63,218 nucleotides of DNA from assembly GCA_964601175.1 (NCBI GenBank), contig CAZRMJ010000004.1:1-63218 (forward strand). Reading direction: 5' to 3'. Each line of letters starts with the position of its first letter. Position 1 is the stretch's first letter. The stretch comes from Candidatus Woesearchaeota archaeon (GTDB lineage: Archaea > Nanobdellota > Nanobdellia > Pacearchaeales > GW2011-AR1). The position numbers were made by a program, and so were the translations under genes. Positions 3,835 through 63,216 of the stretch are shown here, piece by piece. The notes under the pieces are model-generated. The model was not told where the DNA came from. It did no database searches and saw nothing but the letters and a program-made list of their open reading frames with translations.

Positions 3835-4392
3835 ATGGTTGAATTAAAAAGATGCCCTTGGGTAAACGATAATCCTCTAATGGTAGAATACCATGACAAA
3901 GAATGGGGAAATCCATTAAAAGACGACCTCAAGCTATTTGAATATCTTATTTTAGATGCATTCCAAGCAGGTTTAAGTTGGAATACTATAATTAACAAAA
4001 GAGACAATTTCAAAAAAGCATTTGACAATTTTGATCCAGAAAAAATATCTAAATACACTGAACAAGATGTAAAAAGATTAATGAATGATTCTGGAATAAT
4101 AAGAAATAAATTAAAAATCGAATCAACAATAATCAATGCAAAAAAATTCTTAGAACTAAAAAAATCTCAAACATTCTCTGATTATTTATGGTCTTTTGTA
4201 AACAATAAAACGATAGATAATAAAATCAAAACAATCAAAGATTACCAATCTAAAAGTCAAGAGTCCGATGCAATGTCAAAATCTCTAAAAGAAAAAGGAT
4301 TCAAATTCGTAGGCACGACAATATGCTATGCATTTATGCAAGCCTCAGGTCTAGTGAATGATCATAGCGAAGATTGTTTCAGAAGGAATTAA
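3835..4392 (+). CDS. tag: DNA-3-methyladenine glycosylase I
   Basis: 185 aa; CPWVNDNPLMVEYHDKEWGNP..LILDAFQAGLSW is the Tag family pattern. Confidence 0.85.
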   Translation: MVELKRCPWVNDNPLMVEYHDKEWGNPLKDDLKLFEYLILDAFQAGLSWNTIINKRDNFKKAFDNFDPEKISKYTEQDVKRLMNDSGIIRNKLKIESTIINAKKFLELKKSQTFSDYLWSFVNNKTIDNKIKTIKDYQSKSQESDAMSKSLKEKGFKFVGTTICYAFMQASGLVNDHSEDCFRRN

Positions 4393-4755: not shown

Positions 4756-5514
4756 TTAATCTAAAATATGAGGCTTACACATCTCATAACCCTCATCAAT
4801 GGGGCTATAACCAACTAGATTTTTAGTTTCATTCAAATCCATATATTCATTTTTGCTCTTAGAAGAACCAGCAAGAATTGCAAATTTCAGGTCTTTTGAA
4901 GCAAATATACTTTTATAGATTAATTGAGCAAAATCCCTCTGAGAAATAATATAATCAAAATTACTTCTAGTAGGGCAAGCAATCTTTAACATAGAATCAG
5001 AAATATATGCACCTATTCTAATAGCAAAACAACTCAAACCATAAGTTGCAGAATAAACATGACACATAGATTCAACAAAAACTTTAGTAGCCCCATAATA
5101 ATTCAGAGGTTTACCTGCATCAGCAGATTTAACATTTTTCCCTATAGAATATCCTCTAATAGCATGAACGCTACTAGCCATTATTACTCTTTTAATTCCA
5201 ACGCGTTTAGCAGCTTCTAGAACATTATAGGTCCCAATAATGTTAGGCTCAATAAAATTCATAAAATTTTGGTCTTTCTCATCAGAATTTCCCGCCAAAT
5301 TAATTACTACATCAAAACCAGAGAATACTTCCATCAAATTATTTAAATCAGACAAATTAACTTTAACAGTCCTATATCCTGAAAGAGGAGTCTTATTTAT
5401 TCCAACAGTTAAGTCATATTTATCTCTATAATTTTTATCATATTCCTCTAAAAAACTAGGCCCAATAGAATTCAACCTTTTCCCAGTCAATCCAATAATT
5501 AAAACTTTCATCAT
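4756..5514 (-). CDS. NAD-dependent epimerase/dehydratase family protein (short-chain, Rossmann)
   Basis: 252 aa; N-terminal VLIIGLTGKRL glycine-rich loop and YGATK (YxxxK) catalytic motif. Confidence 0.7.
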   Translation of the reverse strand: MMKVLIIGLTGKRLNSIGPSFLEEYDKNYRDKYDLTVGINKTPLSGYRTVKVNLSDLNNLMEVFSGFDVVINLAGNSDEKDQNFMNFIEPNIIGTYNVLEAAKRVGIKRVIMASSVHAIRGYSIGKNVKSADAGKPLNYYGATKVFVESMCHVYSATYGLSCFAIRIGAYISDSMLKIACPTRSNFDYIISQRDFAQLIYKSIFASKDLKFAILAGSSKSKNEYMDLNETKNLVGYSPIDEGYEMCKPHILD

Positions 5515-5535
5515 AAAAATTTAAGATTAGAATTA

Positions 5536-6138
5536 TTAAATCTTACCAACCAAATTAATTCCAGGTTTCAAAGTTTTATTTCCTGCTTCCCATTCGACAG
5601 GACAAACTTCTCCACCATGTTCTCTAACATACTTAGCAGCTTGAAGTTTACGCAAAACTTCTTTTACACTACGACCTATTGAGTTATCATGAATATCTGC
5701 ACTCCTAACAATTCCATCAGGATCTATAATGAATGTAGCTCTTAAAGCACGGCCCTCATCTACTCCACTATCTATGTAAACCCCATACATTTTAGAAATT
5801 TTTCCAGAGTTATCAGCGACCATCGGATAACTTATTTTTTTTATTGAAGGAGATTGATCCCACCAAGCCTTATGGACATGTTCGCTATCTGTACTTATGC
5901 TTAATACTTCAGCATTAGCAGCCTTAAAATCTTTATACATATCAGCAAATCTACTAAGTTCAGTAGGACAAACAAAAGTAAAATCTCCTGGATAAAAAGC
6001 AACAACAACCCATTTACCCTTCAAACTACTAAGTCTAAGTTGTTTAAACTTACCTTGATGAAAAGAATGAGAGATAAAATCAGGAGCTTTTCTTCCCACA
6101 AGTGTCCCAAAACCAGAATTTATTAAATTTTGTTGCAT
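5536..6138 (-). CDS. Peroxiredoxin (2-Cys Prx/AhpC type)
   Basis: 200 aa; FYPGDFTFVCPTEL active-site motif and C-terminal GEVCPVEW resolving Cys. Confidence 0.9.
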   Translation of the reverse strand: MQQNLINSGFGTLVGRKAPDFISHSFHQGKFKQLRLSSLKGKWVVVAFYPGDFTFVCPTELSRFADMYKDFKAANAEVLSISTDSEHVHKAWWDQSPSIKKISYPMVADNSGKISKMYGVYIDSGVDEGRALRATFIIDPDGIVRSADIHDNSIGRSVKEVLRKLQAAKYVREHGGEVCPVEWEAGNKTLKPGINLVGKI

Positions 6139-18145: not shown

Positions 18146-18243
18146 ATGGCCCTACGAGGAATACTTCAACTCTTAGTTGAAGTTAGATTACGACTTGTTC
18201 GTAATCGTACGTTCGATTCCTTGAAAATGGCCCTACGAGGAAT
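18146..18243. repeat. 17-nt direct repeat of the tRNA-Arg(TCG) 3' end flanking a 64-nt twin-hairpin cassette
   Basis: atggccctacgaggaat occurs at 18146-18162 and 18227-18243. Between them are H1 ACTTCAACT/AGTTGAAGT (18163-18183) and H2 GATTACGA-CTTGT-TCGTAATC (18186-18206). gttcgattcct (18211-18221) is the inverted copy of the T-loop region at 18238-18248. Confidence 0.85.
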
Positions 18244-43936: not shown

Positions 43937-44449
43937 ATGATAACTGCACATATAACTTCCGAGAAAATACACTCCACTTCTAGTGAAGCATTTAGTTTAT
44001 ATGAGAAATCAAGATTCGGAGAAAAAGTAAGAGACAGAATAGAATATTCATGGATTGAAGCCCTATTTCTAAAAAGTAAATTCAAAATATCTTTACAAAG
44101 AAACAATAAAGAGCTTCAGTTAGAAAATGCAATAAATCTTGCAAAAAAACACGATAAAAGAATAGAAACAAAATTAGCAGTATTTGAAAGTTTAAGAAAC
44201 AAAGGATATGTTGTAAAAACAGCCTTAAAATTTGGTGCAGATTTTAGAATCTATAAAAAAGGATCAAAGCCAGGAGAAGATCACGCCCTATGGTTAGCAT
44301 ATGCTGTAAGGGAATCTGAGCCCCATACATGGCACGATTTTGCAGCAAAAAACAGAGTAGCACATTCCACAAAGAAGAAATTACTAATATGCATAGTAGA
44401 CGACGAAAATGATGTCTTATATTACGAAGTATCTTGGTTGAAGCCTTGA
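43937..44449 (+). CDS. endA: tRNA-splicing endonuclease (short, homotetramer-size subunit)
   Basis: 170 aa; YVVKTALKFGADFRIYKKGSKPGEDHALWLAYAV matches the EndA catalytic-domain pattern (Y..H..K triad context). Confidence 0.8.
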   Translation: MITAHITSEKIHSTSSEAFSLYEKSRFGEKVRDRIEYSWIEALFLKSKFKISLQRNNKELQLENAINLAKKHDKRIETKLAVFESLRNKGYVVKTALKFGADFRIYKKGSKPGEDHALWLAYAVRESEPHTWHDFAAKNRVAHSTKKKLLICIVDDENDVLYYEVSWLKP

Positions 44450-46071: not shown

Positions 46072-46143
46072 GGCTGTGTAGCTTAGTGGTAGAGCGCGAG
46101 TCTCATAAGCTCGAGGTCGGGAGTTCAATTCTCCCCACAGCCA
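46072..46143 (+). tRNA. tRNA-Met (anticodon CAT; elongator-like, but Ile2-type cannot be excluded)
   Basis: 72-nt cloverleaf: GGCTGTG/CACAGCC, D arm GCTT-AGTGGTA-GAGC, anticodon arm CGAGT-CTCATAA-GCTCG, T arm GGGAG-TTCAATT-CTCCC, discriminator A. Confidence 0.85.
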
Positions 46144-46259
46144 TTAGAGAATTGAATGGAGTTCAATTACTTTAACTCGTAAGAGTTTAAGTCACATTTG
46201 TGACTTGTTCACAAATAGTGCTCCCCACAGCCATTAGAGAATTGAATGGAGTTCAATTA
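46131..46259. repeat. 39-nt perfect direct repeat (tRNA-Met 3' end plus 26 nt of trailer) flanking a 51-nt twin-hairpin cassette
   Basis: ctccccacagccattagagaattgaatggagttcaatta occurs at 46131-46169 and 46221-46259. Between the copies are H1 CTTTAACTC-GTAA-GAGTTTAAG (46170-46191) and H2 ATTTGTGA-CTTGT-TCACAAAT (46196-46216). Confidence 0.9.
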
Positions 46260-49186: not shown

Positions 49187-49259
49187 AGCGCGGAACAGGA
49201 TTCGAACCTGCGAATACTCGGGCTGCAGCCGAGCGCGTTAACCACTTCGCCATCCGCGC
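49187..49259 (-). tRNA. tRNA-Cys (anticodon GCA)
   Basis: 73-nt cloverleaf: GCGCGGA/TCCGCGC, anticodon arm CTCGG-CTGCAGC-CCGAG, T arm GCAGG-TTCGAAT-CCTGT, discriminator U as expected for Cys. Confidence 0.85.
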
Positions 49260-49311
49260 ATACGCATGTATGGAGGATACTGTGAATTTCAATTCACTCC
49301 ATCCGCGCATA
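49250..49311. repeat. 13-nt direct repeat of the tRNA-Cys 5' end flanking a 36-nt hairpin-containing insert
   Basis: ccatccgcgcata occurs at 49250-49262 and 49299-49311 (minus sense TATGCGCGGATGG = 3 leader nt plus tRNA nt 1-10). The insert at 49263-49298 contains GTGAAT-TTCA-ATTCAC. Confidence 0.85.
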
Positions 49312-49615: not shown

Positions 49616-49906
49616 ATGGAAAAAGGTTACTGTGACATGAGGGGTTTTCTCTCATTTCTTATATTATTCATGTTATCGAAAAAACCAATGCACGGTCAAG
49701 AGATAGCCAACGAAATAGAAAAAAGAAAGGGGTGTAAACCTTCTCCTGGAACAATATACCCGGCATTGAAACAACTAAAAGAAAATGGATTAATAAAAGA
49801 AAAGAAAGAAGGAAAAATAATAACTTATTCTATAACACCTCAAGGTAAAAAAGAATTTGAACATGCAAGGGATCAATTTTGCAAAACATTTAGTGATGTA
49901 TTTTAA
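49616..49906 (+). CDS. PadR-family transcriptional regulator
   Basis: 96 aa; RGFLSFLILFMLSKKPMHGQEIANEIE...SPGTIYPALKQLKENGLI. Confidence 0.85.
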   Translation: MEKGYCDMRGFLSFLILFMLSKKPMHGQEIANEIEKRKGCKPSPGTIYPALKQLKENGLIKEKKEGKIITYSITPQGKKEFEHARDQFCKTFSDVF

Positions 49907-49930
49907 TAAACAATATCTAGATAGTATATT

Positions 49931-50045
49931 ATGTTCAAATCCTTAACGACCCCGACAGGATTCCTTCAACTTTTAAAAGTTGAATGGGACTGAAGTGACT
50001 TGTTCACTTCAGGATGTTCAAATCCTTAACGACCCCGACAGGATT
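49931..50045. repeat. 32-nt perfect direct repeat (tRNA-Arg(TCT) 3' end plus 18 nt of trailer) flanking a 51-nt twin-hairpin cassette
   Basis: atgttcaaatccttaacgaccccgacaggatt occurs at 49931-49962 and 50014-50045. Between the copies are H1 TTCAACTTTT/AAAAGTTGAA (49966-49985) and H2 CTGAAGTGA-CTTGT-TCACTTCAG (49990-50012). Confidence 0.9.
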
Positions 50046-50104
50046 TGAACCTGCGGCCTGCTGATTAGAAGTCAGCTGCTCTATCCAGGCTGAGCTACGG
50101 GGTC
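50030..50104 (-). tRNA. tRNA-Arg (anticodon TCT)
   Basis: 75-nt cloverleaf: GACCCCG/CGGGGTC, D arm GCTC-AGCCTGGATA-GAGC, anticodon arm GCTGA-CTTCTAA-TCAGC, T arm GCAGG-TTCAAAT-CCTGT, discriminator G. Confidence 0.85.
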
Positions 50105-50127
50105 ACGAAAATGAGAATAAAAAATCC

Positions 50128-50190: not shown

Positions 50191-51087
50191 ATGGAAATGG
50201 AAGTAGTCTGCCTAGGTACGGCAAGTGCGGTACCAAGTAAAAAGAAAAATCATAGCGGATTTTTAGTAAAAACAGAAAAGCACAAAATTCTAGTAGACTG
50301 TGGGGAAGGAATACAAAGACAATTTAAATTTGCAGAAGAACCCGTAACAAAACTAACACACTTACTTATAACCCACTGGCACGAAGACCATTCTATTGGA
50401 CTATTTCCCTTACTAAAATCAATGGGCATGAACAATTATAGTCAAACTCTTCAAATTTACGGACCCAGAACAACAAAAGAAAAAATAGATTTACTACAAA
50501 AGATATATTCTAAATATAGGATAAACGTAAAAGTAAATGAAATAAGTTCAAAGTTAGTTTACGAAGACAATGACTTAAAAATAGAAGCTGAAGAGATGGA
50601 TCATGGAATAGAAACTCTTGCATACAATATAATTTTAAAAGATAAATTAAGAATAGACAAATCAAAAATAAAAAAATTAAAACTCCCAAATTCTCCCTTG
50701 ATAGGCCAACTTCAACAAGGAAAAGATATCAAATTTAATAATAAGACAATAAAATCCAAATCGGTAACTTATATTGAAAAAGGAAAAAAATTGACTATAA
50801 TCCTAGACACTGCAATGAATCAAAATGCTATAAAAATGACAAAAGATTCCGATTTACTAATATGTGAATCAACATATTCCAAAGAAGAGCCAGAACAAGC
50901 AAAAGAATACAAACATCTTACAACTATTCAAGCAGCAGAAATTGCAAAAAAAGCAAAAGCAAAAAGACTAGCGCTAGTCCATATCTCAGATAAGCATCTT
51001 CACAGAACCAATCAACTACTAAAAGAAGCAAAATCAATATTCAAAAACACATCAATCCCAGAAGATTTGCAAAAAATAAAGATATAA
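50191..51087 (+). CDS. rnz: Ribonuclease Z (tRNA 3' endonuclease, MBL fold)
   Basis: 298 aa; LGTASAVPS, LLITHWHEDHSIGL, and a C-terminal LVHIS. Confidence 0.8.
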   Translation: MEMEVVCLGTASAVPSKKKNHSGFLVKTEKHKILVDCGEGIQRQFKFAEEPVTKLTHLLITHWHEDHSIGLFPLLKSMGMNNYSQTLQIYGPRTTKEKIDLLQKIYSKYRINVKVNEISSKLVYEDNDLKIEAEEMDHGIETLAYNIILKDKLRIDKSKIKKLKLPNSPLIGQLQQGKDIKFNNKTIKSKSVTYIEKGKKLTIILDTAMNQNAIKMTKDSDLLICESTYSKEEPEQAKEYKHLTTIQAAEIAKKAKAKRLALVHISDKHLHRTNQLLKEAKSIFKNTSIPEDLQKIKI

Positions 51088-61127: not shown

Positions 61128-61194
61128 TTTTCACACTCGGCAGTGAGAAGGTCCACAACGAAGTGAGGAACCTCGCAACAAGAGAGGGTGAAAA
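61128..61194 (-). other. 67-nt stem-closed structured element between the promoter and tRNA-Val +1
   Basis: Minus sense: TTTTCAC..GTGAAAA 7-bp closing stem abutting the tRNA, with internal hairpins CCTC-TCTTGTTGC-GAGG, GGTTC..GGACC and CACT-GCCG-AGTG. Confidence 0.4.
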
Positions 61195-61218
61195 TATATT
61201 AACAAATCCAAACGAGCG

Positions 61219-62674: not shown

Positions 62675-63082
62675 GTGATAGGTATGACTAATAAAAAGCA
62701 ACTATCTAAAGAAGGAGAACTAAGGTTTGCATCTGAATTCATAAGAAAAGGATGGAATGTTTTCTTACCCTATGGAGAAGATGGTCCAATAGATTTGCTT
62801 TTAGAAAAAGAGGGTCAATTTAAAAGAATACAGATAAAATCAACATCTCCAATAAATGGTACTATACATTGCAGAATAAAATCTTCTAATAACTGGCAAA
62901 TCAAAAAGTATACAAAAAAAGATATAGATTATTTCGGAATTTATGATTATTCCAATAAAAAAGGATACTTTATACCAATAGAAGAAATGGAAGGATTTGG
63001 AGAAACAATATTAAGAATAGAAAAAACAAAAAACAACCAGTCCAAGGGAGTTAGGCTGGCAGAAAATTATGTTTATTTCTAA
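62675..63082 (+). CDS. PD-(D/E)XK-fold nuclease-like protein
   Basis: 135 aa (GTG start, or ATG at 62684); GELRFASEFIRKGWNVFLPYGEDGPIDLLLEKEGQFKRIQIKST fits a D..(D/E)xK/QxK nuclease core. Confidence 0.5.
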   Translation: MIGMTNKKQLSKEGELRFASEFIRKGWNVFLPYGEDGPIDLLLEKEGQFKRIQIKSTSPINGTIHCRIKSSNNWQIKKYTKKDIDYFGIYDYSNKKGYFIPIEEMEGFGETILRIEKTKNNQSKGVRLAENYVYF

Positions 63083-63093
63083 AAAGAATAGCA

Positions 63094-63101
63094 TTTTTAA
63101 A
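63094..63101 (+). promoter_or_regulatory. TATA box for tRNA-Thr
   Basis: TTTTTAAA; the TTTAAA core (63096) lies 29 nt upstream of tRNA +1 (63125). Confidence 0.5.
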
Positions 63102-63124
63102 CCAAGAATTTCATTAAATTTTAT

Positions 63125-63216
63125 GCCTCTGTAGCTCAACGGTTAGAGCAATAGTTTTGTAAATCCAGAGATTTCAAAACAACTATAGGTTGGGGGTTCG
63201 ATTCCCTCCAGAGGCT
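63125..63216 (+). tRNA. tRNA-Thr (anticodon TGT) with a ~19-nt canonical 37/38 intron
   Basis: GCCTCTG/CAGAGGC acceptor, D arm GCTC-AACGGTTA-GAGC, anticodon stem ATAGT/ACTAT, loop TTTGTA|intron 63162-63180 (aatccagagatttcaaaac)|A, T arm GGGGG-TTCGATT-CCCTC. Confidence 0.8.

Follow-up and report, generated by a model that had tools for sequence, protein, structure and literature searches.

A 51-nt, non-coding insert made of two hairpins, flanked by two copies of the 3' end of tRNA-Arg(TCT), lies in the archaeal DNA analysed here and is missing from the same place in close relatives. The cassette is a real insertion/deletion polymorphism between near-identical strains. We read it, with a probability of roughly 60%, as a mobile, non-autonomous mini-element of Pacearchaeota/Woesearchaeota (DPANN) that targets tRNA genes.

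How archaea acquire tRNA introns and tRNA fragments, and why mobile elements prefer tRNA genes, are long-standing open questions. The locus offers filled and empty alleles that occur naturally in near-identical genomes. The family to which it belongs adds many independent insertions, arrays that record the order of insertion and one copy that forms a canonical intron, which makes the question testable.

The tRNA-Arg(TCT) locus

The window, meaning the whole 63,218-nt stretch of DNA, is an AT-rich (~32% GC) segment of an archaeal chromosome with six tRNA genes (Rfam, ARAGORN). It encodes TFB, TBP, EndA (43937-44449), RNase Z (50191-51087), an Sm protein and numerous aminoacyl-tRNA synthetases. 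The nearest homologues of its RNase Z are labelled Pacearchaeota or Nanoarchaeota.

The gene for tRNA-Arg(TCT) occupies 50030-50104 of the minus strand (Rfam tRNA, 69.7 bits; ARAGORN gives 50029-50105). Both programs find a whole, unbroken gene in which CCA is not encoded. A 32-nt direct repeat, ATGTTCAAATCCTTAACGACCCCGACAGGATT, occurs at 49931-49962 and again at 50014-50045, with 100% identity and a start-to-start distance of 83 nt. Read on the strand of the tRNA, the proximal copy (50014-50045, minus strand) consists of tRNA positions A58-G73 (50030-50045) and 16 nt of trailer. The sequence-only reading had counted 18 nt of trailer within the repeat; the actual length is 15-16 nt, depending on whether the tRNA end is taken from ARAGORN or from Rfam. 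The distal copy (49931-49962, minus strand) is a displaced duplicate of the tRNA 3' quarter with its trailer. Beyond it the original spacer follows, and then the PadR gene.

Between the two copies lies the cargo (49963-50013, plus strand), which contains no ORF. It reads cc, a first hairpin (H1), the linker TGGGA, a second hairpin (H2), and g. H1 is a perfect 20-nt palindrome at 49965-49984. H2, at 49990-50012, has the form CTGAAGTGA/CTTGT/TCACTTCAG, with arms of 9 bp and the loop CTTGT. The covariance model of the family, R1, matches the cargo with 71 bits (E 6e-14). Thus the exact 32-nt repeat and the two perfect hairpins are both present, and the earlier description of a duplicated tRNA 3' end around a twin-hairpin cassette is borne out. 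Repeats of a tRNA 3' segment flank the insert and the tRNA is reconstituted, which is the layout of tRNA-integrating elements.

The repeat carries a further feature, which the sequence-only reading had missed along with the empty sites, the stacked arrays and the intron copy described below. At 50016-50026 (minus strand; RNA sense AGGATTTGAAC) the trailer contains 11 nt that copy the T-arm of this tRNA in inverted form, here called Tc. It pairs with 50040-50050, is 100% complementary to it and leaves a loop of 13 nt. A second copy of Tc is found at 49933-49943, within the distal repeat.

Empty and filled sites

The locus is empty in a near-identical strain. L110, part of the 674-kb contig Ga0172278_1397, matches the window with 99.7% identity towards PadR and 98.4% towards RNase Z. 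Its 32-mer occurs once and the cargo is missing, so that the window amounts to L110 with exactly 83 bp added. The flank at 49900-49930 is identical in L110, and the match in the spacer reaches the edge of the repeat. In an alignment with L089, whose RNase Z is 98% identical, one repeat copy without a cassette is seen as in L110. The TCT cassette is likewise absent from the more distant L090, L092, L093, L094 and L096. L090 has a presumed footprint, in which Tc is joined straight to ATCCT and the cargo is gone.

The filled TCT allele is found in the window only. When the three closest strains are compared, the more parsimonious reading is a gain in the window. A loss in L110 and L089 through recombination between the 32-nt repeats is possible, and mechanistically it would be equally easy.

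A different species, L095 (RNase Z 72% identical), has a homologous cassette at the same tRNA-Arg(TCT), with H2 stems that match the window cassette exactly. The 18-nt repeat that flanks it follows L095's own, different acceptor.

Sister insertions in the window

Two other tRNA genes of the window carry insertions of the same kind. The one at tRNA-Arg(TCG) spans 18146-18243 (minus strand; R1 29.2 bits). Its 17-nt repeat lies at 18146-18162 and 18227-18243 and encloses H1 (18164-18182) and H2 (18186-18206), and an inverted copy of the T-arm is found at 18211-18221. The one at tRNA-Met spans 46131-46259 (plus strand; R1 71.8 bits). The copies of its 39-nt repeat occupy 46131-46169 and 46221-46259, and between them lie H1 (46170-46191) and H2 (46192-46220). 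Relative to its tRNA, the Met cargo is oriented opposite to the other cargoes of the window.

Both sister insertions are free of any suspicion of misassembly. Six independent assemblies contain the TCG cassette in identical form, and the Met cassette is found in two further contigs (L123 and L130). Six Logan unitigs from different runs (L104-L109) end at 46230, 30 nt into the distal Met repeat, which is expected of a true duplicated 39-mer; such tRNA-end repeats break k=31 assemblies.

Evidence that the three cassettes are related comes from several comparisons. The window contains three occurrences of the nonamer GACTTGTTC, where 0.52 are expected, and all of them lie at the apex of an H2. 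A composite pattern of H2 apex and H1 matches exactly the three tRNA-linked cassettes and was matched in this way in none of 100 shuffles. Model R1, run with its filters off over the 63-kb window, likewise returns only the three tRNA-linked copies. In a permutation of the cassette alignments that preserved hairpins and matched composition, the three pairs within the window reach p ~0.003-0.013, and five of the six pairs drawn from different genomes reach p <= 0.0005. For the sixth such pair, L030b against the window TCT cassette, one of 2000 shuffles was equal or better. The homology of the TCT, TCG and Met cassettes, first proposed from shared stem and apex sequences, thus withstands formal alignment and permutation, and chance similarity is rejected.

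It had also been remarked that H1 precedes H2 on the plus strand at all three loci. The agreement is probably a coincidence (three copies, chance ~1 in 4); what differs is how the cassettes are oriented with respect to their tRNAs. Of the cassettes found across genomes at tRNA 3' ends, seven run antisense to their tRNA and two, the Met cassette among them, run in sense; the intron copy of the module described below is also in sense orientation. A strand rule tied to replication was considered too, but for three copies in one window the mixed orientation relative to the tRNAs argues rather for coincidence.

The family in other DPANN contigs

Beyond the window, model R1 finds copies in nine contigs (L010, L030, L048, L050, L054, L080, L090, L095 and L096). 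Relatives in Pacearchaeota/Woesearchaeota contigs lie at tRNA-Arg(TCT), tRNA-Leu, tRNA-Cys and tRNA-Ser, the last of these in L050. Pattern scans of genome and metagenome collections returned 87 loci that are mostly chance matches, with real H2 stems in only seven.

The closest relative of the window Met cargo is the cargo at tRNA-Leu(TAA) in L010. The two are ~90% identical, and their differences in H2 are compensatory. This likeness suggests that cargo moves between tRNAs. The L010 repeat is imperfect, with three differences in 19 nt.

Some tRNA genes carry several units in a row. At the tRNA-Cys of L096 there are three successive units, each consisting of the 3' quarter, trailer, Tc and a hairpin; the array ends in a partial 3' quarter that is followed by the ancestral trailer. 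At the tRNA-Leu(TAG) of L054 the 3' quarter is found in three copies. In such stacked arrays the outermost copies are the most decayed. L048 has two copies, one of which lies at the contig end beside partial tRNA 3' segments in antisense orientation. In a search of 6 kb around every tRNA, no further 3'-quarter copies were found to bound larger cargoes beyond these mini-arrays.

Not every copy lies at a tRNA. In L030, a twin-hairpin copy at 3980-4031 (minus strand; 30.7-32 bits) follows a TTTAAAAA box at a distance of ~25 nt and precedes the L44e-S3Ae ribosomal-protein operon. Targeting of tRNA genes is therefore not absolute. In contigs from Hainich groundwater, the twin hairpin is found inside a longer element, which also has a third hairpin and a closing stem that covaries.

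The hairpins are maintained by paired changes. Among 14 distinct copies, 97.3% of cells are standard pairs, and 10 of the 17 pairs have changes on both sides. These measures and the covariation score were reached by none of 500 shuffles, in an alignment that was fitted to the model and so favours pairing.

The position of the insertion is also recurrent. The left edge of the repeat is A58 of the T-loop at six of nine loci. Repeat lengths range from 12 to 46 nt; in the simplest cases (window TCG, L095, L010 and L054) the repeat runs for 17-19 nt from A58, and the others measure 12-14, 32, 39 and 46 nt. The cargo of the family ranges from 51 to 110 nt. In the window and six related loci, Rfam gives no match that overlaps a cassette, whether hits are limited by the gathering threshold or accepted to E 5.

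A different small element adjoins another tRNA of the window. It is ~70 nt long, lies directly 5' of tRNA-Val (61128-61198) and has a covarying closing stem (TTTTCACaCTC...GAGgGTGAAAA), conserved ends (ACTCGGCAGTGAG ... GCAACAAGAGAG) and no Rfam match. It is orthologous to an element of L030 and related to the longer, H1/H2-bearing Hainich form.

The inverted T-arm copy

All three cassette-bearing tRNAs of the window have, in their trailers, a 10-11-nt inverted copy of their own T-loop and T-stem. Among 34 distinct tRNA loci, a Tc of at least 9 nt is present at five of the six with repeats and at three of the 28 others. All three of these others are empty tRNA-Arg(TCT) sites of relatives. Tc is tightly linked to cassettes or to presumed footprints of them. 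It may have been copied from the target, or it may be a product of quasi-palindrome correction.

A relative inside a tRNA-Met gene

One member of the family is found within a tRNA. The tRNA-Met gene of L090 has a 102-nt insert at the canonical intron position, and the core of this insert is the twin-hairpin module. The exons and the promoter are identical to those of the intronless gene in L093. A second model, R2, which was built without L090, recognises the intron core with 52.4 bits (E 6e-10). The flanks of the intron hairpins resemble those of the TCT-type cassette. In the predicted fold, the splice sites would be symmetric about a 4-bp helix with 2-nt bulges, a relaxed form that is BHB-like.

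The TCT cassette differs from this copy. When all repeat registers were scanned for a bulge, a 4-bp helix and a second bulge, no BHB was found that would place equivalent cuts in the tRNA body, and no position gave the 4-bp helix with helices on both sides inside the tRNA; the scan was strict and passed over the relaxed L090 intron motif as well, which makes it a conservative test. A reading of the TCT cassette as a BHB intron was rejected, as the tRNA is complete and no convincing BHB appears either in the scan or in the fold of the precursor. A tRNA-like fold of the inserted unit was also considered and dropped, since neither ARAGORN nor Rfam calls one.

Models for the insertion

Three kinds of mechanism can be proposed for a mini-element of this type. 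Staggered-cut transposition is a tentative first choice, site-specific recombination at an att core is a possible but doubtful second, and recombination or template switching is a rather unlikely third.

On the reading as a mobile mini-element, the 83 bp made up of one repeat copy and the twin-hairpin cargo would represent a single insertion event. The tRNA stays intact because the segment from A58 to past the 3' end flanks the cargo on both sides, and the outer repeat copy is a displaced, non-functional duplicate. RNase Z would cut the cassette off along with the trailer, and the insertion would therefore be close to neutral.

In the transposition model, an enzyme acting in trans may recognise the T-arm and make staggered cuts at ~57/58 and a few nt past the end of the tRNA. 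Gap repair would then duplicate the 16-19-nt 3' quarter as a target-site duplication. Such a process would resemble the way in which casposase and Cas1 use the TpsiC segment as a leader.

The 32-nt repeat at tRNA-Arg(TCT) could be explained as a 16-nt duplication followed by 16 nt over which the left end of the element (TTAAGGATTTGAACAT) matches a footprint in the trailer. This older footprint would be what the empty L110 and L089 sites carry. The variable repeat length in the family (12-46 nt) misfits a fixed stagger unless this footprint argument is invoked, and the perfectly matched inverted T-arm copy goes beyond a simple cut-and-fill model.

A source of the mobilising activity was sought in the window and in collections of mobile elements. 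A local enzyme was rejected as a candidate: Pfam searches of the ~40 ORFs in the window, which represents ~9% of a ~0.7-Mb genome, gave housekeeping genes only, and no integrase, transposase or Cas1 was among them. Three pattern scans of IMG/VR gave only chance hits, on GC-rich or unrelated contigs with no tRNA nearby, and blastn against phage and plasmid collections gave no match. A virus or plasmid origin was set aside on the lack of any true match in these collections, in which DPANN mobile elements are poorly sampled.

Another model replaces transposition with recombination between att sites. Here a small circle, in which the cargo is joined to a tRNA 3' segment that acts as attP, recombines by means of a tyrosine-type integrase supplied in trans, and the repeats are attL and attR. 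The arrangement at the tRNA is what such a process would leave, as the repeat is the 3' part of the tRNA, begins in the T-loop and runs beyond the 3' end, and the tRNA is restored. Integration of this kind has been tied to tRNA fragments and to the gain of introns (Sugahara et al. 2012, PMC3293823). The tandem stacking in L096 and L054 resembles island arrays, and the imperfect repeat of L010 could represent an attP that differs from its attB.

Several observations make this model unlikely nonetheless. There is no integrase in or near any cassette or elsewhere in the window, and an attP-bearing virus or plasmid was not found in the collections searched. Each tRNA would need a new matching core, yet tRNA-Met and tRNA-Leu carry near-identical cargo. 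The repeats of L095 and of the window each match the acceptor of their own host. A spacing of 13-19 nt separates the inverted T-arm repeats, which is too wide for the core of a tyrosine recombinase. Finally, a double-stranded circle of 83 bp is physically implausible.

Insertion could also occur without a dedicated enzyme, through host recombination or template switching during replication at short homologies, namely the near-universal AATCC of the T-loop and the T-loop-like arms of H1. Hairpins would promote slippage, and deletion between the repeats would give the empty sites. The left boundary of the repeat does lie at the conserved AATCC, the H1 arms (CTTCAAC/GTTGAAG) are T-loop-like, and the variable repeat lengths and the footprint in L090 can both be accommodated. 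The perfect inverted T-arm copies might come from quasi-palindrome correction, and the window encodes a RadA-like protein. Against this, homologies of 5 nt are very short to have produced the same architecture at many tRNAs and in many genomes, and the compensatory conservation of the H2 loop and stems is left unexplained. Transfer from another tRNA locus should also import the acceptor of the donor, which is not seen. An enzyme-free origin is accordingly improbable.

Alternatively, the cassette may be a feature of the RNA, either intron-like with a BHB or functional as a trailer RNA; the distal repeat would then be the true 3' exon or a regulatory decoy. The module does form the core of the L090 intron at its canonical position, with predicted splice sites symmetric about a 4-bp helix, the hairpins covary, and EndA and RNase Z are both encoded in the window. 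But tRNA-Arg(TCT) is complete and needs no splicing, no BHB would cut both repeat copies at equivalent points within the tRNA body, and the 5' candidate site, at the T-loop boundary, sits in a perfect 11-bp helix. With seven antisense and two sense copies at tRNA 3' ends, no single RNA strand is conserved. Near-identical strains manage without the cassette, and no Rfam family matches it even at E up to 5. Taken as a whole, a role in the RNA has very little probability for the TCT cassette.

An assembly artefact, whether the window gained a false duplication or the empty contigs lost a repeat copy by collapse, might be suggested by the recovery of the filled TCT allele in the window only and by the ease with which short repeats confuse de Bruijn assemblers, but it has next to no probability: the cargo is a unique 51 nt homologous to cassettes elsewhere, which mis-joining cannot invent, L095 shows the same architecture at the same tRNA, and the genome of L110, with its 674-kb contig, keeps both the TCG cassette and the Met cassette with its longer 39-nt repeat, so that the empty TCT site is not a collapsed repeat.

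Relation to known elements

Literature searches found no description of these elements. We classify the TCT element, read as a mobile mini-element, as both MITE-like and integrative-element-like, with a substantial chance that it represents a class of its own with a bearing on tRNA intron gain.

MITEs, REP/PATE elements and the double-hairpin elements of Allomyces mitochondria are small, non-coding, hairpin-rich, multi-copy, variably present and non-autonomous. The double-hairpin elements are ~50 nt long with two hairpins. Long, variable duplications are known from elements of the IS1634 group.

The tRNA-linked family resembles MITEs and other small palindromic elements in being small, non-coding, hairpin-dominated, multi-copy, polymorphic in its presence or absence, and apparently non-autonomous. 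It differs from MITEs in its duplication, which is not short and fixed but covers 12-46 nt and is tied to the geometry of the tRNA. Clear terminal inverted repeats are also lacking: no conserved ones were found in the family, where closing stems covary instead, and in a reading of the sequences the similarity between element ends is weak, with 5-9 matching positions. In addition, the T-arm is duplicated in inverted form, and the host lineage (DPANN archaea) and the target are different.

A second comparison is with the introns of archaeal tRNAs. Fujishima and colleagues reportedly proposed, in 2010, the transposition of archaeal BHB tRNA introns. In the present family, a homologous module is the core of the recently gained or lost tRNA-Met intron of L090, and relatives lie at different tRNAs. 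Unlike a BHB intron, the TCT cassette lies outside the mature tRNA, has no BHB and needs no splicing.

Elements that integrate at tRNA att sites, such as the pNOB8 and SSV types and bacterial islands, provide a third comparison (Sugahara et al. 2012, PMC3293823). As in the present family, repeats of a tRNA 3' segment are shared and the tRNA is restored. The likeness extends to displaced partial tRNA copies, tandem stacking, occupancy that varies between strains and a proposed link to intron gain. The present family differs in that its cargo is a hairpin unit of 51-110 nt with no integrase or other gene. Its repeat also tracks the host tRNA, an inverted T-arm copy is present, and no free attP element was found in the collections searched.

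The casposase of Aciduliprofundum boonei produces a 15-bp duplication that overlaps a tRNA 3' end, and it requires the TpsiC segment (Beguin et al. 2016, PMC5137440). By analogy, this precedent shows that chemistry of the type envisaged exists in archaea. Further parallels with casposons and Cas1 are the long duplication of a tRNA 3'-end target, the TpsiC arm as a possible leader, and leader-proximal units that yield polar repeat-insert-repeat arrays. Casposons have a fixed duplication of 14-15 bp with a tRNA overlap of 5 bp, and they are large elements that carry Cas1, PolB and long terminal inverted repeats (PMC5137440). In the TCT-type insert, by contrast, the duplication begins inside the T-loop, its length varies, the cargo is tiny and the window has no Cas1.

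A bolder reading is worth considering, although the odds are somewhat against it. The family may represent a DPANN class of mini hairpin elements that home to the tRNA T-loop, duplicate the 3' quarter together with an inverted T-arm copy, build leader-proximal, CRISPR-like arrays of tRNA fragments, and enter the anticodon loop as a spliceable intron. If such a class exists, it would provide a directly observable route from mobile DNA to the gain of tRNA introns and the fragmentation of tRNA genes. For annotation, the cassettes are a source of partial tRNA copies, and their repeats break DPANN MAG assemblies at tRNA genes.

Other variation at tRNA genes

The neighbourhood of tRNA-Arg(TCT) varies in other ways. 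L110 departs from the window near ~49347 (position 1232 of L110), on the promoter side of tRNA-Cys, and has a TrmB-family gene instead of the tRNA-Cys/GlyRS block. In L093-L097, two large genes lie between tRNA-Arg(TCT) and RNase Z, one a PRC-barrel gene of ~470 aa and the other a gene of ~970-1020 aa without a Pfam match. These contigs also have an ORF of 45-51 aa on the same 5' side of the tRNA. All three are missing in the window, L089, L090, L092 and L110.

Genes of other kinds are found at tRNA 3' ends in two relatives. [quoted passage not shown] Immediately 3' of tRNA-Met, L090 has an inserted MazE/PIN pair (5467-6046). Genes such as these were considered as a payload of the elements and rejected, as no 3'-quarter copies bound them.

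An insert at a tRNA 5' end is found at the tRNA-Cys of the window, between the promoter and the tRNA (49250-49311). The first 10 nt of the tRNA and 3 upstream nt (CCATCCGCGCATA, plus strand) are duplicated 49 nt upstream, giving repeats at 49250-49262 and 49299-49311. They enclose a different hairpin (GTGAATT tc AATTCAC). An orthologous 5' insert is present at the tRNA-Cys of L096, where the distal copy has diverged (GCGCGGATG vs GCACGGATG), and L090, L093, L094 and L095 have none.

The last tRNA of the window (63125-63216) looks like a tRNA-Thr(UGU) with an intron of ~20 nt. Its acceptor begins with a G1-C72 pair and its loop reads TTTGTAA, while the ARAGORN call alternates between Tyr and '???'. 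An ORF of the PD-(D/E)XK type (PDDEXK_5; 62684-63082) precedes it. L118, L119 and L122, in which the S3Ae protein is identical, have a tRNA-Thr(TGT) that is intronless and differs in its 5' half, and they lack the nuclease ORF, and homology with the window resumes within the tRNA's 3' half. The region (62684-63216) looks like an allele replacement of the homing-endonuclease type.
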